A DNA stretch of 64,000 nt, from IMG/VR virus record IMGVR_UViG_3300032138_000009, positions 1 through 64,000 of that record. The stretch is one strand, 5' to 3'. The translations under genes and the position numbers were made by a program. A model generated the notes under the pieces. That model did no database searches, was not told the DNA's origin, and worked only from the letters and a program-made list of their open reading frames with translations. Position 1 is the first letter of the stretch. Every line of letters starts with the position of its first letter. Origin of the DNA: a virus. Lineage: Duplodnaviria; Caudoviricetes. Below are positions 1 to 9,044 of this stretch, piece after piece.

Positions 1-471
1 TGTAATGATTTCGATGGTGGTACAACTTTGCTGGACTACAAGACCAGTAAGCGCTATGGTGCATACCTCCCAGAGGATTATTATCGCCAGCTGATTATCT
101 ACGCATTCTTGTACACATTAGAGATGGGCGAGATGCCGAAGTTTGTGGGCGTTAATTACCTTCGCTTTGATGATACCTTCTTTGTGAAAGTTACACAGAG
201 CGTGCTTGATGAAGCCAAGGACTTAATTAAGATGGTACACAACTGTTTAAAAGAGCGTGAGGAATATGAGGAACGCTATGAACAGAAACCCCAGAATCTT
301 TGTAAGTGGTGTTCGTTTAATAAGCAACACAACGGTGGACCGTGCGACGTGGTAATTCCTAAATGGAAACCTAAGTTTAAGAAAAGTAAAGAGACATATG
401 CAGATATTGATACAAAGATGAAGGGACAAATAGAGCTTGATAACCAAGAACAGTTTCCCGAGTTTGATTAA
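1..471 (+). CDS. Cas4-like/RecB-family PD-(D/E)XK nuclease, 5' truncated by window edge
   Basis: Frame open from base 1 (CNDFDGGTTLLDYKTSK); DYK motif, RQLIIYA motif, C-terminal CKWC...C Fe-S ligands. Confidence 0.8.
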   Translation, partial: CNDFDGGTTLLDYKTSKRYGAYLPEDYYRQLIIYAFLYTLEMGEMPKFVGVNYLRFDDTFFVKVTQSVLDEAKDLIKMVHNCLKEREEYEERYEQKPQNLCKWCSFNKQHNGGPCDVVIPKWKPKFKKSKETYADIDTKMKGQIELDNQEQFPEFD

Positions 472-479
472 GAGTAATC

Positions 480-488
480 TTTATATAT
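480..488 (+). promoter_or_regulatory. Archaeal TATA box (CTTTATATA), probably leaderless transcript
   Basis: Intergenic; ATG at 510 lies 22 nt downstream; same motif at 2398, 4956, 27999 and 52030(-). Confidence 0.7.
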
Positions 489-509
489 GTCCTCGTTCTA
501 AGAAATTAC

Positions 510-1460
510 ATGGCGCGCGATGATTATGGAGCCATAAACGTGATTTCTGAGGAGGAACGCGAAATCCTAGGCATAGGAGGCTCCAAGAAACCTGAAGAGG
601 ATGACGAAAAGTTATTCGAGACTATCGGTAAAGCTGCTGATAAGATTGGGGAGACCCAAGTAGGTAAGAAGATAGGAACTATAATCACTATCGTGTTGCT
701 AGCGCTTCTGAGTGGGGGGGCCAACATGTCTATCATTCACGATTACTTTAATGGTGATGAAGATATTGGTCCCATCGGGGGCTGTCTACAGACAGACGCC
801 ACCAATTATAACCCACAAGCTACATTCGACGACGGAAGTTGTAACTTTTTAGTTATTATATATGGTTGCACTAATCCCGAAGCTGAAAACTATGATGAGC
901 AAGCTACACATGATGATGGACGTTGCGTAATTTTAAACGACGGTAATGGTAGTGCAAATGAAACAGCTGCTATCTATGGTTGTATGGATATAGATGCTAA
1001 TAATTATGATGACAAAGCTACTGAAGATGATGGTTCATGTGATTATGAGGATGAATATGAAGAACCTGAATGTAATTCTACATCAGTACTTTTTTACCCC
1101 GGCTGGTATGACCAAGAAACAGAAAATATGTCTGTTTACTGGGTGAACGAAACAGCTGAAGGTATATCCGTATTAACAGATATAGATGCTGAGTGTAGTG
1201 ATTATGATGCATCTGTGTTAGTTTATGTGGACGTATGGCACGAAGAGTCTGGTGATTATAATTGGACAGACATATATATGACTGTTAGTGGTGATAATTG
1301 GGATGACCACTGGTTTAATTTCACTTTCGAAGAACTTAACGAAACAGAAGGTGATTGGGCTATGTGGGTAGCATTACTCGTATGGGACGAGGTAGATGAA
1401 ACATATATATTCCAACAACAATTTGAAATCCCAATGATACGAGTGGAGGCTCCTGAATAA
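510..1460 (+). CDS. Type II membrane surface protein with three Cys-paired DDGSC repeats and acidic beta-rich C-terminal domain
   Basis: TM segment IGTIITIVLLALLSGG; repeats IYGCTNPEAENYDEQATHDDGRC etc.; 9 N-X-S/T sequons after the TM. Confidence 0.75.
   Translation: MARDDYGAINVISEEEREILGIGGSKKPEEDDEKLFETIGKAADKIGETQVGKKIGTIITIVLLALLSGGANMSIIHDYFNGDEDIGPIGGCLQTDATNYNPQATFDDGSCNFLVIIYGCTNPEAENYDEQATHDDGRCVILNDGNGSANETAAIYGCMDIDANNYDDKATEDDGSCDYEDEYEEPECNSTSVLFYPGWYDQETENMSVYWVNETAEGISVLTDIDAECSDYDASVLVYVDVWHEESGDYNWTDIYMTVSGDNWDDHWFNFTFEELNETEGDWAMWVALLVWDEVDETYIFQQQFEIPMIRVEAPE
774..1040 (+). repeat. Three intragenic GC-x5-NY-x3-AT-x-DDG(S/R)C repeats
   Basis: IGGCLQTDATNYNPQATFDDGSC / IYGCTNPEAENYDEQATHDDGRC / IYGCMDIDANNYDDKATEDDGSC. 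Confidence 0.9.
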
Positions 1461-1525
1461 TGTGTTGCATAGACTGTGGTTGTTGTAACAAATGTGCGTG
1501 CCCATGTTGTAAGGAGGAGTCGTGA
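1460..1525 (+). CDS. 21-aa Cys-rich metallothionein-like micropeptide MCCIDCGCCNKCACPCCKEES
   Basis: Not in ORF track; TAATG coupling to upstream stop and GTGA coupling to the next start; 9 of 21 residues Cys. Confidence 0.65.
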   Translation: MCCIDCGCCNKCACPCCKEES

Positions 1526-1656
1526 ACGCAACAGATATGTTGCATTTAACAAACAAATTAGATATGATATTATCAACAGTAGATGATATTAAACAGATGC
1601 TGGTCAAACAGCAGATGTTAAAATATGAAGAATTAAAAGAGGAATTAAATGAGTAA
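1522..1656 (+). CDS. 44-aa coiled-coil micro-protein
   Basis: GTG start with AGGAGG SD at 1512-1517; (M)NATDMLHLTNKLDMILSTVDDIKQMLVKQQMLKYEELKEELNE; overlaps next start. Confidence 0.6.
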   Translation: MNATDMLHLTNKLDMILSTVDDIKQMLVKQQMLKYEELKEELNE

Positions 1657-1975
1657 TCATAAGAAAGATGCAGCAAACCCTGATGGGAACTTCGCTAACT
1701 TCATGATGATGTTAGTAGCAGCACCAGTCGTAATGGCTTGGGTAGGACTATCTATATTCTTAGTAACAATGGCATTCCGTCACCCAGAGATAGTAGAAGA
1801 TATAGAATCTTATAAGTCAGTATTACTAATCATAGGGTCACCTGCATTAGTTATTATATATAAGGTATTAGAGTTATGGACTGCTCAACAGAACAGTCAG
1901 ATAGAACAAACAAGAAAGGGTACATTCCGTAATGGGGATGACCATGAACACGAAGAAGAGGAAATAAAAAAATGA
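1649..1975 (+). CDS. Two-TM membrane protein, holin-like topology
   Basis: Two hydrophobic helices and a highly charged C-terminal tail (DDHEHEEEEIKK). Confidence 0.6.
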   Translation: MSNHKKDAANPDGNFANFMMMLVAAPVVMAWVGLSIFLVTMAFRHPEIVEDIESYKSVLLIIGSPALVIIYKVLELWTAQQNSQIEQTRKGTFRNGDDHEHEEEEIKK

Positions 1976-2079
1976 ACGACTTTGAAGTAAAAGAGTTGTA
2001 CGACCAAGTACAAAAAATGCAAGAGCAATTGAATGCACTGAAAGAAAGCAACTGTAAATGTTGCGAGGAGAAACTATGA
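1972..2079 (+). CDS. 35-aa coiled-coil micro-protein with CKCC tail
   Basis: ATGA overlaps at both ends; MNDFEVKELYDQVQKMQEQLNALKESNCKCCEEKL. Confidence 0.6.
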   Translation: MNDFEVKELYDQVQKMQEQLNALKESNCKCCEEKL

Positions 2080-2390
2080 CAGAAGAAGTAACAACAGCAT
2101 GTAAAGCAGCAAAAACGGCTGTAACAGCAGCAGAAGGAATATTAGCAACAGCGGTAGCAGCAGCGGCAGTAACAGCGGCAGCAATACCACCGTTAGCAGC
2201 AGATGAAGCAGCAGCAGCAGTTGCAGCAGGAGCAGAACTAGGACTTAATCCAGCTGCCGATGCATGGTTAGCCGCAGCAACAGCAGCTCTAGCCGCAGCA
2301 ACAACAGCAAATGCAAATGCAGACGCAGCAGTAGTAGTTGCGACAGCAGGAGTAGGCGCAGCTAAAACGGCAGAGACCGCAGCCTGTTAG
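2076..2390 (+). CDS. Ala-rich (47/104) helical protein
   Basis: ATG at 2076 with GAGGAG SD and ATGA overlap (track start 2058 is upstream); GCA-rich codons. Confidence 0.7.
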   Translation: MTEEVTTACKAAKTAVTAAEGILATAVAAAAVTAAAIPPLAADEAAAAVAAGAELGLNPAADAWLAAATAALAAATTANANADAAVVVATAGVGAAKTAETAAC

Positions 2391-2397
2391 AAGTAAA

Positions 2398-2427
2398 CTT
2401 TATATAGGTAGAGATTCTACCTGTATA
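2398..2427 (+). promoter_or_regulatory. TATA box with overlapping inverted repeat (AGGTAGA-gat-TCTACCT), possible operator
   Basis: CTTTATATA 2398-2406; arms at 2406-2412 and 2416-2422, extendable to 2401-2427. Confidence 0.6.
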
Positions 2428-2428
2428 T

Positions 2429-2491
2429 GGGCTCTCGCTGAAGGGCCAAGGCTCCACAGGATACTTAACGCAAGTGCCATCGTGGGAGCCC
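2429..2491 (+). ncRNA. Structured 5' leader / small RNA, unclassified
   Basis: GC-rich island starting at the predicted TSS; GGGCTCTC (2429-2436) pairs with GGGAGCCC (2484-2491); internal hairpins. Confidence 0.5.
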
Positions 2492-2507
2492 CAACATGGA
2501 GAAAACT

Positions 2508-2978
2508 ATGTCAAATAACACAACAAACGAAACAAGCAACAACAATACTGCATTGGATACAAATCAGACTGCAAATGATACAAATACAACCAGTAATGTT
2601 ACTGCAAATGATGTAAGCGAATCTGGAATGTTAGATGGTCTAATGGATGCATTACAAGACTCACCCGAGCTTATGCTCGCGGTTGCAGTTATAGGAGCAC
2701 TAGTTGCTTATATTGCATACACTGTACCAGCAGTTAGGATGATGGTTATGCCATATCTTAAGAAATACGATGAAGAAATTCTCGAATTATTAGATAAGAA
2801 CCTAACAGCAGCACAGGTTAAAGCTTACGAGAAGCTGGATGAAGCAGCTCAAAAGCATGTAAAAGATGCAATGCTCAGAAATGTAATAATGTCTGCATAC
2901 GACCAAAACGATGATAAATTCGTAGCCGTCGTTAAGACAGAAGCAAAAGACGCTTTAGCAGAAGCTAAAAAGCTTTGA
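2508..2978 (+). CDS. Single-TM membrane glycoprotein with sequon-rich N-terminus
   Basis: GGAG SD before ATG 2508; 8 N-X-T sequons in first 32 aa; TM LMLAVAVIGALVAYIAYTV; helical C-terminal domain. Confidence 0.7.
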   Translation: MSNNTTNETSNNNTALDTNQTANDTNTTSNVTANDVSESGMLDGLMDALQDSPELMLAVAVIGALVAYIAYTVPAVRMMVMPYLKKYDEEILELLDKNLTAAQVKAYEKLDEAAQKHVKDAMLRNVIMSAYDQNDDKFVAVVKTEAKDALAEAKKL

Positions 2979-3322
2979 ACGAAGTAGAATATGAGCAGCG
3001 GTTACGCCAGCGGGTAGGAGAAGGAGAATATGAACGTCATAAAGAACTTGTACGCTTGCTGGCTCGCAATCTCGCTCTTGAAGATATTTTGTGGGAAGAA
3101 ATTACTATACATATTCGGGACATTAACTTACGAACAGAGCTCTTGCGACAAAGAAATTCAATCGTTCGTGACATACATACGGAATTCAGAGCGTTAAATA
3201 TAGAGATACCTACAGTATTAGAGACTACAACTGAAGGTTTCGCTAGCTTTTTAGAGGATTTAAACGATGACAACACAAGTGAAGAACGAATCGAAGAAAC
3301 TACAAGCAGCACTGACAGGTAA
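2975..3322 (+). CDS. Probable terminase small subunit
   Basis: TTG start coupled by TTGA overlap; helical 115 aa directly upstream of and overlapping TerL. Confidence 0.55.
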   Translation: MNEVEYEQRLRQRVGEGEYERHKELVRLLARNLALEDILWEEITIHIRDINLRTELLRQRNSIVRDIHTEFRALNIEIPTVLETTTEGFASFLEDLNDDNTSEERIEETTSSTDR

Positions 3323-4949
3323 AGGTGTACATGATTCAAGAGCTTTAGAGAATATATTCGAAGATTGTAGACACAGTGAAGAAAAAATGAAAAAATTGAT
3401 ACGTGCCTTCTGTGGTGCATATCTATTAGACAATAAACAACGCCCTTTACAACTAAGACCACTTCAAGAAATCATAGTTGTTAAGTCGTTAACTCATCCT
3501 AAACACAGTAAACAAAGAAAATTAGCTATTCTAGCTCCAAGAGGTAGTGGAAAATCATACGCACTCGCTGTTGCGGCTACAATATATATGTTTTTTAAGA
3601 GATTTAGAGATTTAATCTTTGTTTTGGCTCCATCAGAGGACCAAGCAGCATTAATCTTTGGATATATCTATAGAAATTTTAAAGATAATAAGTTCTTAGA
3701 TAGCTTAGTAGATAATTATAAATTTCACAATAAGCCCCATATACGCATGAAGGGGGGTACAATGTTGCGTAGAGCTCCATTAGCGCCTAGTAATCAAGGT
3801 CAATCCATACGTGGGCAACACCCTACGTTCTGTATTGTTGATGAGTCCCCACTCATCGACGATAAATTGTTCATTGATAATGTAGAACCAGCGATAGTTT
3901 CAAATATGGCCCCTTTCATAAATTTAGGTACACCAAAGTCTAAAGACAACCATATGCATCGTTATTTATATGATGACGCTTATGCAGAAACATGGACACG
4001 GTTACATTTTACATGGAGAGATGCAGTGGAAACAGGTGATGCTTATTCACCAGCATATACTGAAGAAGATATGTTAACTAAAATGATGGAGTGGGGTGAA
4101 GACTCTATTTACTGGAGAACTGAATATGAATGTGAATTTGTGGAAAGTATTTCGAATGTATTTAATCCAGAAAAAGTTAAGGGATGTTATGATGACTACG
4201 AACTCTACGAACCGGGAACCTATGAGCATGGCGGCAAAAATTGCACTGTTGCTGTTGACATTGGGAAATCTGTCAATAGTACTGTTATTAGTGTTTGGGC
4301 TAGGGAGCAAGATGAATTCGGGGATATCGCACGTCTCATATATCTTGAGGAAATCAATCCTAGAACCGGTGGGCATGACATACCATATCAACGAAAACGT
4401 ATTATGGATATTGCTCGTGGTTTTAGCGTTGGTCAGGTTATTATTGATGCTACGGGGATTGGTGGTGCTATTGAGCAGGACATCAGATTAGAGTGTATTC
4501 AAAGTACCCCTCAGATTCATTTTTTACCATTTATATTTACAGGAGGACCCAGAGGAAGTAAAACTCAAATATATAGAGATTATGTTTCCTTTATGCAACA
4601 ACGTAAGATTAAAGTTCCCAATCCAGAACCATTAGATATGGTGTCTCGTAAAGTGATTAATAAATGGTTTAGGGAACATGTTGATTTAGAATATGTTATG
4701 GATGCTGCTAATAAGACAGAACGCATTAGCGCACCCGATACTAAACATGACGATTACTGTGATAGTTCAGTTTTAGGTATACATGCAACTTTAGCTATGT
4801 TACCCGGTACTGCAACGGTGGCTGCTTCCCAATCTGGTCAATCTAGAGCTAATCAGCAACTAAATTCTAATATAGGCAGACATTCAGGAGTTTCCCTTTT
4901 TAGAACAAAAGGACGTAATTTCAATCCAAAAGGTAAGTTTTCATTATGA
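3267..4949 (+). CDS. terL: Terminase large subunit
   Basis: Walker A APRGSGKS, Walker B CIVDES, RNase H-like nuclease VAVDIG ... HDDYCDS. Confidence 0.95.
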   Translation: MTTQVKNESKKLQAALTGKGVHDSRALENIFEDCRHSEEKMKKLIRAFCGAYLLDNKQRPLQLRPLQEIIVVKSLTHPKHSKQRKLAILAPRGSGKSYALAVAATIYMFFKRFRDLIFVLAPSEDQAALIFGYIYRNFKDNKFLDSLVDNYKFHNKPHIRMKGGTMLRRAPLAPSNQGQSIRGQHPTFCIVDESPLIDDKLFIDNVEPAIVSNMAPFINLGTPKSKDNHMHRYLYDDAYAETWTRLHFTWRDAVETGDAYSPAYTEEDMLTKMMEWGEDSIYWRTEYECEFVESISNVFNPEKVKGCYDDYELYEPGTYEHGGKNCTVAVDIGKSVNSTVISVWAREQDEFGDIARLIYLEEINPRTGGHDIPYQRKRIMDIARGFSVGQVIIDATGIGGAIEQDIRLECIQSTPQIHFLPFIFTGGPRGSKTQIYRDYVSFMQQRKIKVPNPEPLDMVSRKVINKWFREHVDLEYVMDAANKTERISAPDTKHDDYCDSSVLGIHATLAMLPGTATVAASQSGQSRANQQLNSNIGRHSGVSLFRTKGRNFNPKGKFSL

Positions 4950-4964: not shown

Positions 4965-4994
4965 CTGATACCAATTACTATTTAAGTGGTAGCC

Positions 4995-6287
4995 ATGGCG
5001 ATTTTTGACAGAGTACGAAGAGCTTTCGCCACAACCGGAAGCGAACCTCCCTTTAAAGAGGATGACCCAGTAAGTTTTGGAGCAGGTATAATCAAACGAT
5101 TAAACCTATCTAATAACTTTTCTTATGGGACTAAAAAGAAGTATGAAGAACATTTAGGAAGACCTAGAATATATATGGACGTATATCTATCTGACCCTAT
5201 AGTTAGAAGTTTGATAGACCTTCCTTGTTTTTATGCAGTTAAGGATAATTTTGATATCGTAACAGATGACGATGATAAAAGAGAACGCATAGAAGAAATG
5301 TTTAGAGATATAAACATAGAGAATATTTTATATGGTTGGGTTAGGAACGCCAGAATTTTTGGAACAGGCTACTTAGAATGGACTGGAGATAATCTAGTTT
5401 TACGTTCTAGCCAGAATATGTATGTCCAAAGAAATGAACATGGACAAATTAAATACTATTATCAAGATATTGGTGATGATAAAGATAATATTCATTTTGA
5501 ACCTGAAGAAATATGTGCTTTATTAAATAACCCTTTTGATGATTACGCGTATGGGTTATCAGATATTCACCCTATTCTTTATTTAATAGATTTAAAAGAT
5601 TATGCAGAAAGAGATATAGGAGCTGCTTTGAATAAATACGCTTCGTCTCGATTTGATATATCGTGTGGTTTACCAGATATGCCTTACGGACCTGATAAGA
5701 TTAATGAAGTAGTAGATGCTTTTAACAACTTAGCTCCGGGCGAAGATATCATTCACGGTAATGATATAGAAATTAAAGAACTTCAAGGTACTCAACGTGC
5801 CTTTGAGTATGGTAAATATACAGACGATATATTAGATAAAATACATATGGCACTAAAGGTCCCTAAAACTATGTGGACCGACCCAGATAAGGCTCGTCCA
5901 ATTTTCGAACCTTATGTAAGATATCTACAAACTATGATTGAATCTGCTTTGAATGCCCAGTTAATGCCTCAAATAGAGGATGGCGAAGCGAAATTTAAGT
6001 TTAGGCAAATTAATGTAGAAGACGCCTTTACTAAAGCAAAGACAGATATGATTTATTTATCTGAAGGAGTATTATCACCCGGCGAAGTTAGGGAAGAGAG
6101 AGGTCTCGACCCAGAAGGAGTAGTCGAATTAGATATGCTAAAGGACGTAGCTGTTAAACAAGCTGGACAATCGGATAAGAACGCTAATGTTTCTGGTGGA
6201 AAAGACACCGACAAGAAAGAAGAGAGCGCTAGAGCACAGAATCGTGGTAACCAACCCGCTGCCAATGCGACAGGAGATAGAGCATGA
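4995..6287 (+). CDS. Portal protein
   Basis: About 430 aa between TerL and protease; GTGYLE and PFDDYAYGLSDI segments; alternative GTG start at 4986. Confidence 0.85.
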   Translation: MAIFDRVRRAFATTGSEPPFKEDDPVSFGAGIIKRLNLSNNFSYGTKKKYEEHLGRPRIYMDVYLSDPIVRSLIDLPCFYAVKDNFDIVTDDDDKRERIEEMFRDINIENILYGWVRNARIFGTGYLEWTGDNLVLRSSQNMYVQRNEHGQIKYYYQDIGDDKDNIHFEPEEICALLNNPFDDYAYGLSDIHPILYLIDLKDYAERDIGAALNKYASSRFDISCGLPDMPYGPDKINEVVDAFNNLAPGEDIIHGNDIEIKELQGTQRAFEYGKYTDDILDKIHMALKVPKTMWTDPDKARPIFEPYVRYLQTMIESALNAQLMPQIEDGEAKFKFRQINVEDAFTKAKTDMIYLSEGVLSPGEVREERGLDPEGVVELDMLKDVAVKQAGQSDKNANVSGGKDTDKKEESARAQNRGNQPAANATGDRA

Positions 6288-7549
6288 GTTATGAAAAATG
6301 TGTAGTATCCGTAGGAGCTACCTTAAAAAAGCGTGGTGTTGATAATCACGAAGGGCTAGCTAGTTCTATGTGTAATACATGGGCGGACCAGAACGGTGTA
6401 GAGAGGGAGTTTGGGAGAACTCTAGTAGAAGGAGATAAAAGAAGGACCTTTGCTTTATCATTAGGAGAAAGCGAAGATATATCATTTACTGAAGAGGAAG
6501 GAGTACAAACAGCAACATTTCCTGTTATTGCTATAACTTCAGGGCCTCATGAGTATGAAGAAGATGATATACAGCAAAAGGTTTATATAGAACCTGAGGT
6601 GTTAAGAAAGGATATAGAAAGTTTTAAAGAGCTTCCTATATATCTGAACCATCAAAGGACATCAGACGATTTAATTGGCATGGCTGCTAATCCTGAGGTG
6701 TTTGAGATGGATAATGGAATGACCGCAATTAAGATGTTAGCTACTGTAGATAACAAAACTGAGAGTGGTAAAGAAGTGCTAGAAAAAGTAAAGGAAGGGG
6801 ATATGACTCATGTAAGCATTGATTGGTTTTCCAATGATGTAGATGTGATGGGTGATACATTCGCAACGAATATTCGCCCTACAGAGGTGAGTTTTATTGA
6901 TAATAATACAATGGACCCCGTCTGTAAGGAATGTACAATTGAAAATGATAATGAAACGTGTGATTTGCATGCTAAGAAAGATGACCACGACTGCGGTTGT
7001 GGAGGTCATGAAGGAGCGTGTGAATGTTCAGACGGGAAACAAGAGGTAATAAATATGACTGAAGAAACTCCTGTGAAATCCGAGGCAGAAAACATAGTCG
7101 AACGCGAATTTGCGTCACTACGTACACAACTTGAAGAAGCAACAGCTTCAAAAACGGAAATTGAATCCCAGTATAATGATGCTATGAAAGAAATCGAAGC
7201 ATTTAAATTAGCTGAGGAAGAGAGAGCCGCTAAAGAAGCAGAAGCTAGAAAAGTTGAAACCGTAGAAGCAATTATATCCAAAGAAATCTTATTCAATACA
7301 ATTGATGAAGACAAAAAGGATGCACGCGTCGAGGAATTAACTGCTTGGGATGAACCAAGGCTGACTGGTTTCAGCGAAGCTCTTGCTGCAATGCCGGTAC
7401 CTGAAGAGACCGAAAGAACCTTCGGAAAGGGTAAATCCAACGAGGGTGAAGAACTGTCTCCAACAGAGACCGAAAGGCAATTTGCAGTCAAGATGGACGA
7501 AAAAACTGGGCGATTTAAATTGAACCCAGAAGTACTAAGAGGTAATTAA
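6284..7549 (+). CDS. Prohead maturation protease fused to coiled-coil scaffold
   Basis: IYLNHQR (His) and HVSIDW (Ser) motifs, EVSF; C-terminal acidic coiled coil; precedes capsid genes. Confidence 0.8.
   Translation: MSYEKCVVSVGATLKKRGVDNHEGLASSMCNTWADQNGVEREFGRTLVEGDKRRTFALSLGESEDISFTEEEGVQTATFPVIAITSGPHEYEEDDIQQKVYIEPEVLRKDIESFKELPIYLNHQRTSDDLIGMAANPEVFEMDNGMTAIKMLATVDNKTESGKEVLEKVKEGDMTHVSIDWFSNDVDVMGDTFATNIRPTEVSFIDNNTMDPVCKECTIENDNETCDLHAKKDDHDCGCGGHEGACECSDGKQEVINMTEETPVKSEAENIVEREFASLRTQLEEATASKTEIESQYNDAMKEIEAFKLAEEERAAKEAEARKVETVEAIISKEILFNTIDEDKKDARVEELTAWDEPRLTGFSEALAAMPVPEETERTFGKGKSNEGEELSPTETERQFAVKMDEKTGRFKLNPEVLRGN
7055..7549 (+). CDS. Nested in-frame scaffolding protein (164 aa)
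   Basis: In-frame ATG in context aagaggtaataaatATG, nearly identical to the 7552 and 28812 initiation regions. Confidence 0.65.
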   Translation: MTEETPVKSEAENIVEREFASLRTQLEEATASKTEIESQYNDAMKEIEAFKLAEEERAAKEAEARKVETVEAIISKEILFNTIDEDKKDARVEELTAWDEPRLTGFSEALAAMPVPEETERTFGKGKSNEGEELSPTETERQFAVKMDEKTGRFKLNPEVLRGN

Positions 7550-7955: not shown

Positions 7956-9044
7956 ATGGTCGCATTATCAGATAATACAGCACCCGGTCTACTTACTTCC
8001 CTTAACACAGGAGCTTACGCAGCTACCGGTGGAACAGGGGAACGTGTTCTCATAGATTATAAGGACGCAATCAAAGATTATAAGGTCACAGACCTTGCAG
8101 CTTTGAGTATGTTCGCAGAACCTATGACCACAGAGACTGGCGGTGATATTGATATCACATTCGCAAAACCCTCAATGGGTATGGAAGAAATCAACGAAGG
8201 AAACACTCCTAAGTATCAACACACTAACTTACGCTCCGAGAGAGTGTCTGTTGGCGAGTGGGGACTTGCAGTAGGTGTAACCCGTCGTATGATAGAAGAT
8301 TCGAGATTTAACGAAGTAGAGATGGCTTTAAATGAAGCACGCAGGGCGGTAGACCGTCATGTTACAAAACACACTATTTATGCTTTGCTAGGTATCCTTG
8401 ATGCTGGTTTTGGAACCGGTGTTGACGGAGCAAGCATAGTATCAGGAACAACTGAGGCTAATATTGTAGACTTTAGCGATAATGTCTATGGTGGATTCCT
8501 TGGAAAAGGTTCTGAAATTAATGTGGGACGTAACTATTCATATGGTCTTACAGCATCTGGCACGCTTCAAACAGGTCACTATGTAACTGCAACATCATCA
8601 ACAGCTGGTGATATTGCATTGAGTGACTTAACTGACGCTATGGAACTTATTGGTGGACACGGCTTTACAGCTAACACATTAATGATTTCCCCAGCACACT
8701 ACAAAAGTTTATTGAATTTAGCAGACTTTACTACAGCAATAAGTTCAACGGCAAATGAGTCGTTCCCTTATGTTGTAGAAGAAACTGCTCCATTCAAGAA
8801 TACTCTTGGAAGTGGTCTTGTAGGCAGCATCTATGGATTAAACATTGTTACAAACGCATGGTGTCCTAGCGATAGGGTTTTCATGTGGGACAACTCTGTT
8901 AAACCAATGAGTTATGTCGAGAGAAGGCCATTGACTGTAGAAGAAGCAAATCCGGGATTCGGAATTGTTGGTTCTTATATGTCGATGAGATACGGATTGA
9001 AGATTACAAGTCCAATGTCCGGTGTAGTTATTATAAACGCTTAG
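7956..9044 (+). CDS. Major capsid protein (HK97 fold)
   Basis: 362 aa in head operon; EINEG, VSVGEWG, LMISPAHY, VGSIYGLNIVTN patterns. Confidence 0.9.
   Translation: MVALSDNTAPGLLTSLNTGAYAATGGTGERVLIDYKDAIKDYKVTDLAALSMFAEPMTTETGGDIDITFAKPSMGMEEINEGNTPKYQHTNLRSERVSVGEWGLAVGVTRRMIEDSRFNEVEMALNEARRAVDRHVTKHTIYALLGILDAGFGTGVDGASIVSGTTEANIVDFSDNVYGGFLGKGSEINVGRNYSYGLTASGTLQTGHYVTATSSTAGDIALSDLTDAMELIGGHGFTANTLMISPAHYKSLLNLADFTTAISSTANESFPYVVEETAPFKNTLGSGLVGSIYGLNIVTNAWCPSDRVFMWDNSVKPMSYVERRPLTVEEANPGFGIVGSYMSMRYGLKITSPMSGVVIINA

Follow-up and report, generated by a model that had tools for sequence, protein, structure and literature searches.

Can a reading frame of only 21 codons, nine of them for cysteine (Cys), be a genuine gene of a marine virus, and what would its product do? 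The question is raised by the start of IMG/VR virus record IMGVR_UViG_3300032138_000009, an 81,208-bp record of a tailed virus of which bases 1-64,000 were analysed (hereafter the window). An earlier note, made from the sequence alone, had singled out a 21-residue, nine-Cys open reading frame (ORF) at positions 1460-1525 with CC, CxC and CxxC motifs, no aromatic residues and overlaps with the frames on both sides, and had read it as a metallothionein-like micropeptide. Its layout and composition were found as described. Judged from homologous loci, this micro-gene, here called cys21, is almost certainly translated and selected, and we give about an even chance to the view that its product is a new metallothionein-like metal-thiolate peptide that serves a module of small proteins by storing or buffering metal or by acting as a metal-dependent clasp.

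The Cys residues of cys21 (2, 3, 6, 8, 9, 12, 14, 16 and 17) make up 9/21 of the peptide (43%), compared with about 0.8% of the viral proteome, and are spaced as CC-xx-C-x-CC-xx-C-x-C-x-CC. Phe, Trp, Tyr and His are absent from the window peptide, and a His occurs in the tail of the L132 version. The A of the ATG is also the final A of the TAA (1458-1460) that ends the upstream 316-residue ORF, g316 (TAATG), and the TGA (1523-1525) overlaps the GTG (1522-1524) of the next, 44-residue ORF, g44 (GTGA). A GGAGG Shine-Dalgarno sequence precedes the start, a motif found at -16 to -5 in only 16 of the 2631 ATGs of the window (0.6%), and the codons of the K-E-E tail, AAGGAGGAG, double as the Shine-Dalgarno sequence of g44. 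Both signals, as well as the status of cys21 as an optional, strain-variable cassette and its membership of a modular family, go beyond the earlier note. A programmed -1 frameshift fusing cys21 to g44 was judged unlikely by inspection, with a TAA four codons before the g44 start and no slippery heptamer. Genes as short as cys21 are invisible to standard gene callers, and it does not appear in the ORF tracks and public protein sets examined.

Homologous versions were sought in several ways. Relatives by the large terminase (TerL) numbered 556 in IMG/VR, 80 of which were fetched, and a Cys-density scan found cys21 in diverged relatives with 66-99% TerL identity. Three DNA patterns, anchored in the N-terminal half, in the C-terminal half or only in the 5' flank, were searched against viral contigs, and the N-terminal one also served for a scan of metagenomes. 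In each of these searches some of the Cys codons were fixed and other codons left free (10 to the end, 1-11 or, at the few loci of the flank search, the whole ORF); the fully unbiased sample, consisting of the flank-anchored search and a synteny survey, is small. Altogether 17 distinct nucleotide versions were recovered from marine viral and metagenomic contigs, the only places where the peptide was found. Stops or loss of Cys codons at homologous loci, which the earlier note had named as telling against its proposal, were looked for: all nine Cys are retained in 16 of the 17 versions, the remaining lineage (the L122 group) has a remodelled C-terminal half with seven Cys in all, stops or decayed frames were seen in none of the 17 versions, and the searches anchored in the C-terminal half or 5' flank retrieved no copy that had gained a stop or lost a Cys. 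The flank-anchored search returned 12 intact copies and one locus with another micro-gene instead, and the search from the C-terminal half retrieved exactly the same loci, the two halves of cys21 never occurring apart.

The substitutions among these versions are those of a coding sequence. Both TGT and TGC occur at each Cys position, and the four Cys codons left free by the N-terminal pattern show a mean pairwise difference of 0.37 at third positions versus 0.00 at positions 1-2; for the variable codons 10, 13 and 15 the difference at positions 1-2 is 0.46. Pairwise nonsynonymous divergence (dN) is 0.06-0.16 and synonymous divergence (dS) is saturated. Lys11 is invariant with AAA/AAG variation, Asp5 varies between GAT and GAC, and Ile4 is conserved with synonymous variation, while positions 7, 10, 13 and 15, which hold no Cys, vary freely, giving the family motif M-C-C-I-D-C-[GE]-C-C-[DENV]-K-C-x-C-x-C-C-K-E-E-x. 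Among the 16 aligned versions, all except L132 have GGAGG or GGAGA 10-11 nucleotides upstream and 14-15 keep AAG GAG GAR; most versions also have an ATGA or GTGA overlap between this stop and the start that follows. The start can be fixed at M-C-C because an in-frame upstream ATG of some versions is cut off by a TGA in others. By these comparisons selection acts on the Cys residues, on Lys11 and on the reading frame, which is unusually clean comparative evidence of selection on a micro-gene, in a virus group widespread in ocean metagenomes.

The contrary view, that the locus is no gene but an ORF that arose by chance, shadows an antisense gene or forms a DNA or RNA element, is essentially refuted and retains hardly any probability. 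Cys-rich antisense and alternative frames do arise elsewhere in the window, opposite or within Ala/Thr/Gln-rich genes, because TGY codons read ACA/GCA on the opposite strand; composition alone is therefore no proof and the comparative evidence decides. One antisense frame even runs without a stop through 106-185 codons in each of five versions examined. However, the substitutions pile up at third positions of the forward frame, which are second positions of this open antisense frame, and since each synonymous Cys flip changes its second codon position, the antisense frame is not under selection. Among the first seven versions, two have the codon-aligned antisense frame interrupted by stops, and every version has stops in both remaining forward frames. 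In 100 dinucleotide-preserving shuffles of the window, no ATG ORF of 12-40 residues reached nine Cys (maximum seven; mean of maxima 4.8), which excludes chance. The Shine-Dalgarno sequence and start are conserved, and RNAalifold detected no conserved RNA structure in 16 versions with flanks (consensus -0.47 kcal/mol, 0 covarying pairs). In the window alone, a CUCCU (1450-1454) can pair with the Shine-Dalgarno sequence of g44 (1512-1518) and so enclose the whole micro-gene in a hairpin (minimum free energy -31.1 kcal/mol, z=-2.2), a pairing that is not kept in relatives.

The Cys core itself is a modular element, free in some genomes and fused in others. A C-x-C-x-C-C followed by acidic residues is shared across the Cys-cluster ORFs of the module, whose forms are listed in Table 1. 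The L058 genome carries two stand-alone copies, and a CCC is seen among the fused viral forms; the two fused forms have ESM Atlas scores below 0.9. No support was found for a Rosetta-stone link from g44 to the helix in the fusion with an N-terminal cluster, as BLASTP gave no alignment. A similar peptide was seen outside the family. A virus without detectable homology to it encodes, on the minus strand, a 23-residue, nine-Cys stand-alone peptide with the same C-x-C-x-C-C-K-E-E end (L094:7837-7908), placed between a highly basic protein of 120 residues and a nuclease-like protein of 121 residues. Unrelated viral contigs (L098:11098-11358; also L116, L110, L100, L108 and L118) carry tandem Cys/His-rich peptides of 43 and 38 residues, the latter with 13 Cys and a C-K-C-C-K-E-E end, upstream of three paralogous proteins of about 135 residues. 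In the pre-terminase module of L041, L042 and L044, a small basic peptide of about 35-40 residues has a 4-Cys end, C-P-D-K-x-G-x-x-C-x-G-C-R-x-G-N-P-C, and this peptide occurs in genomes without Cys-cluster peptides.

Table 1. Features of the cys21 region, of the virus and of related loci. Plain positions refer to the window; positions preceded by an L number refer to other loci.
Feature	Position	Strand	Remarks
g316, membrane-anchored protein with Cys-containing repeats	510..1460	+	precedes cys21 in the gene chain; no family in Pfam or PHROGs
Shine-Dalgarno GGAGG of cys21	1445..1449	+	10 nucleotides before ATG
cys21, 21-codon, 9-Cys micro-gene	1460..1525	+	17 nucleotide versions, TGT/TGC at every Cys position
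AAGGAGGAG, K-E-E tail codons of cys21	1511..1519	+	doubles as Shine-Dalgarno of g44
g44, 44-residue Cys-free helical peptide	1522..1656	+	translationally coupled to cys21; homologues in many relatives
g108, small protein, two hydrophobic segments and charged C-terminus	1649..1975	+	two-transmembrane reading by sequence inspection
g35, 'MNDFE' helix peptide ending in 3-Cys remnant of core (N-C-K-C-C-E-E)	1972..2079	+	phrog_10610, function unknown, E=2e-4
Large terminase (TerL)	3267-4949		
433-residue ORF directly after TerL	4986-6287		portal reading by position only
Cys/His-rich linker (7 Cys, 3 His in 42 residues) in 421-residue post-portal protein (ORF 6284-7549)	6911..7036	+	
HK97-type capsid protein	7956-9044		
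Core form A, stand-alone between g316 and g44			window type
Core form A', stand-alone directly before g108	L092:2598-2657		
Core form B, stand-alone directly after g108	L103:3105-3179; L120:1380-1451; L065:2371-2442; L058:1317-1388; L080:5087-5134		
Core form C, C-terminal tail of a 'MNDFE' helix peptide of about 25 residues			1 to 9 Cys by genome; window g35 is a 3-Cys member
Core form D, acidic N-terminus, C-C-D-C-C-C, then helical region	L067:4140-4343		also record-end copy (~L380:15560-15750)
R-Y-K-K-L-L-E micro-genes	L032:3689-3736; L040:3070-3123; L048:3660-3707; L125:413-466; L131:487-537		

How far the name metallothionein-like holds depends on whether composition or descent is meant: by composition cys21 qualifies, whereas by descent it appears to lie outside every described family. 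Metallothioneins have masses well under 10 kDa; with 21 codons, CC, CxC and CxxC motifs and neither aromatic residues nor His, cys21 answers to the descriptive definition, and it shares with metallothioneins the small size, the extreme Cys content, the motif types and a modularly evolving Cys number. This descriptive part of the earlier proposal stands; a sequence relation to any metallothionein family was not found in Pfam, NCBIfam or the PDB. Pfam searches at E<=10, metallothionein and Fer4 models included, gave no match for seven Cys peptides, a weak negative given the composition filters of HMMER. In PHROGs and NCBIfam the Cys peptides matched nothing, including models for precursors of ribosomally synthesized and post-translationally modified peptides (RiPPs), apart from the phrog_10610 match of g35. 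The family profile had no PDB match, and the single window sequence matched only a clostridial 2[4Fe-4S] ferredoxin over C-I-D-C-G-x-C (E=7.7, not significant). A pure Cys-spacing DNA pattern run on genomes and viral contigs was swamped by (TGY)n repeats and is uninformative on cellular peptides of the same spacing. The published descriptions of magroviruses and Poseidoniales viruses that were examined mention neither cysteine nor metallothionein, and a literature search for phage or archaeal metallothioneins gave nothing relevant.

The M3Cys9 beta-domain of vertebrate metallothionein likewise has nine Cys, and the C-terminal C-x-C-C motif is another feature in common with metallothioneins. 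Compared with the named metallothioneins cys21 is shorter and denser. It also differs from them in being encoded by a virus, in a late structural operon, as an optional gene whose core is often fused to helix peptides and for which metal binding is a prediction. The metallothionein of Neurospora crassa, which has 26 residues and forms Cu(I) clusters, was 'once considered the shortest' (PMC4755600), and a fungal metallothionein family has a conserved CCC motif (PMC13107397).

The explanation we favour can be put as follows. cys21 would be translated from a polycistronic mRNA just upstream of the terminase genes, by means of its own strong Shine-Dalgarno sequence and with stop/start overlaps that may couple it to the genes on both sides, and would yield a product of about 20 residues after the probable removal of Met1. 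In the reducing cytoplasm the nine thiolates would most likely form a small cluster around soft metal ions, such as Zn(II), Cd(II) or Cu(I), and the acidic tail would keep the peptide soluble. Coordination chemistry leads us to infer that nine thiolates within 16 residues chelate soft metals; Cu(I) clusters as in the N. crassa protein would be equally possible as M(II)3Cys9. Because the element occurs free or fused to the helix peptides of the module, it probably works with this module of small membrane and coiled-coil proteins, either as a reservoir or buffer or as a metal-dependent clasp. Metal buffering or sequestration has, as a role, an even chance at best or slightly less, and is ranked above the clasp because variation in Cys number and in copy number looks more like a capacity trait, as in metallothioneins, than like a precise structural joint. 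The absence of Radical_SAM, YcaO, glutaredoxin and thioredoxin genes from the complete 81-kb record, and hence of any enzyme for peptide modification or thiol redox, counts for a metal-thiolate peptide, while the in-frame fusion of the core to other peptides and the conserved spacing, I4, D5 and K11 count, as sequence comparisons can, for a function at the level of the peptide.

Several points weigh against this explanation. All of the evidence is comparative, and the searches selected on Cys-containing patterns. There is no similarity to any metallothionein family or solved structure, and since metallothionein is a compositional class, belonging to it says little about mechanism. The gene is dispensable, as about one third of the distinct related genomes have no Cys-cluster peptide and cys21 is absent in a co-assembled strain; its role is thus conditional, and the genomic context does not reveal it. 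For the neighbouring g44 and g108 no annotated relatives were found, and the data single out no metal. If cys21 does bind metal, it would undercut the 26 residues of the shortest classical metallothionein, it would be, to our knowledge, the first viral metallothionein, and it would represent a natural minimal metal-thiolate module moved by evolution between free and fused states. More tentatively, and with perhaps one chance in four, abundant marine archaeal viruses may hold a private, fast-reshuffled toolkit of ribosomally made metal-thiolate mini-modules, as free peptides of 15-24 residues and as helix tails, with which they would take up or reallocate scarce or toxic trace metals (Zn, Cd, Cu) of the host cell at a late stage of infection. 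If so, cys21 would possibly be the shortest natural metallothionein-like peptide, and viral infection would directly alter the trace-metal quotas of ocean archaea.

Other functions of the peptide or its codons have to be weighed against a metal buffer. In a purely structural clasp, the Cys cluster would join g44, g108, g35 and their relatives, or oligomers of these, through a shared metal or disulfides and would buffer nothing; this agrees with the covalent attachment of the core to the MNDFE peptide or another helix peptide in many relatives, and with the position of the stand-alone copies, which are in every case immediate neighbours of g44 or g108 and share stop/start overlaps with them, an arrangement suggestive of stoichiometric co-production. 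Nevertheless, it is unlikely, as neither g44 nor g108 contains a Cys that could act as direct thiol partner, as an optional gene and fused tails whose Cys number ranges between 1 and 9 would be unusual for a precise joint, and as g44 has no detectable homology to the helix of the N-terminal-cluster fusion. The related suggestion of the earlier note, a cross-linker for Cys-bearing neighbours, gains indirect support from the frequent fusion of the core to the neighbouring helix peptide, but loses ground with the Cys-free g44 and g108 and with the lack of co-occurrence between the small Cys peptides and the Cys/His-rich linker of the post-portal protein (rho=0.11, p=0.54; the linker is universal). 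Alternatively, C3-x-x-C6-x-x-C9, together with C12, might ligate a [4Fe-4S] cluster and make cys21 a redox-active mini-ferredoxin. In its favour, C-I-D-C-G-x-C is similar to the cluster loop C-x-x-C-x-x-C, the non-significant clostridial ferredoxin motif is the sole neighbour in the PDB, C3-xx-C6-xx-C9 is invariant in the type of the window and 16-residue maquettes bind [4Fe-4S] provided that the Cys spacing is kept (PMC10946529). This reading is improbable all the same: the ferredoxin motif continues as C-x-x-C-x-x-C-x-x-x-C-P, whereas the next Cys of cys21 follows after x-x; Gly7 and Pro15 occur in only 10 and 4 of 16 versions, respectively; the core invariant across the family is C-x-C-x-C-C, with CxxCxxC absent from more distant members; no Fer4 model matched at E<=10; and five extra Cys would be left unexplained.

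It could also be the codons rather than the peptide that matter. As in attenuation leader peptides, a tiny ORF rich in one codon type lies upstream of other genes and is coupled to them, and its nine Cys codons might sense Cys-tRNA or sulfur status and gate the genes downstream, the peptide being functionless. The shortness of the ORF, the freedom of positions 7, 10, 13 and 15, the location of the next gene's Shine-Dalgarno sequence inside it and the hairpin that can sequester this sequence in the window would all suit such a leader. The residue conservation beyond Cys, at I4, D5 and K11 with synonymous variation, the fixed Cys spacing, the occurrence of the same core inside longer, real proteins, the lack of conserved or alternative RNA structures and a downstream partner that varies by genome (g44, g108 or another micro-gene) make it quite improbable, somewhat more so than the iron-sulfur reading. 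Least probable among the functional alternatives, and very much so, is a modified peptide, that is, a RiPP-like precursor with thioether or thiazole cross-links or a membrane anchor lipid-modified by host enzymes. Cys-dense and very short like some RiPP cores, cys21 shares with SCIFF/ranthipeptide precursors the nature of a short ribosomal peptide with many Cys, and Cys-rich tails that are S-acylated beside membranes in eukaryotic viruses offer a loose resemblance. In contrast to such precursors, it has no leader region, its core beginning at residue 2, no adjacent or virus-encoded radical-SAM maturase, neither Radical_SAM nor YcaO being encoded by the complete record, and no match to an NCBIfam or Pfam precursor family.

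The surroundings of cys21 define it as an accessory, optional gene. The family gene order is nuclease, g316, [cys21, g44], g108, g35, variable genes, g160, g115 and TerL, but in many relatives g316 is followed straight by g108 and in others g44 is present without a Cys gene; of 31 distinct related genomes, about one third are without a Cys-cluster peptide. In a second copy of the module at the record end g316 abuts g108, without cys21 or g44, and this g108 has 99% protein identity to the window copy, so that the cys21-g44 pair (1460-1648) represents a strain-level indel within one co-assembled population. The layout of g108 is holin-like by inspection only; ocean metagenomes contain 441 clusters of this protein, all unnamed and without a Pfam domain, one of them on a contig binned as Flavobacteriales, probably by mis-binning. 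The 421-residue post-portal protein, which we read as a protease-scaffold, carries its Cys/His-rich linker between an N-terminal part and a coiled-coil C-terminal part in all 31 distinct related genomes, and this linker looks like a structural metal site.

The virus is an uncultured marine tailed virus, probably of an archaeal host, because it encodes a full-length archaeal/eukaryotic-type initiation factor 1A (aIF-1A; 109 bits versus an NCBIfam cut-off of 91). It also encodes a family-B DNA polymerase, an adenosylcobalamin-dependent ribonucleotide reductase, an ATP-dependent ligase and a glycosyltransferase. No cultured relative was found, the best TerL identity being about 23%, and the M-C-C-I-D-C pattern had no match in 185,579 species-representative genomes, giving no provirus or host clue. 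The record end (G000 77,220-81,208; L380:13220-17208), which lies past the window, is a divergent second copy of the record's own start, from the nuclease to the N-terminus of TerL. This copy shares 99.2% identity with L007 and 79-94% with window positions 1-3589, so that the record wraps round a unit of about 77 kb and joins two co-occurring strains.

A second micro-gene family was observed in related genomes, and not in the window, in the slot that cys21 occupies before g44. Its members have 15-22 residues with the motif R-Y-K-K-L-L-E-[SAN]-I-G-E-E, and their 11 nucleotide versions show abundant synonymous Leu, Ser, Arg and Gly changes. In L125 and L131 the R-Y-K-K-L-L-E micro-gene directly follows a Cys peptide with an ATGA overlap, forming tandem micro-genes.

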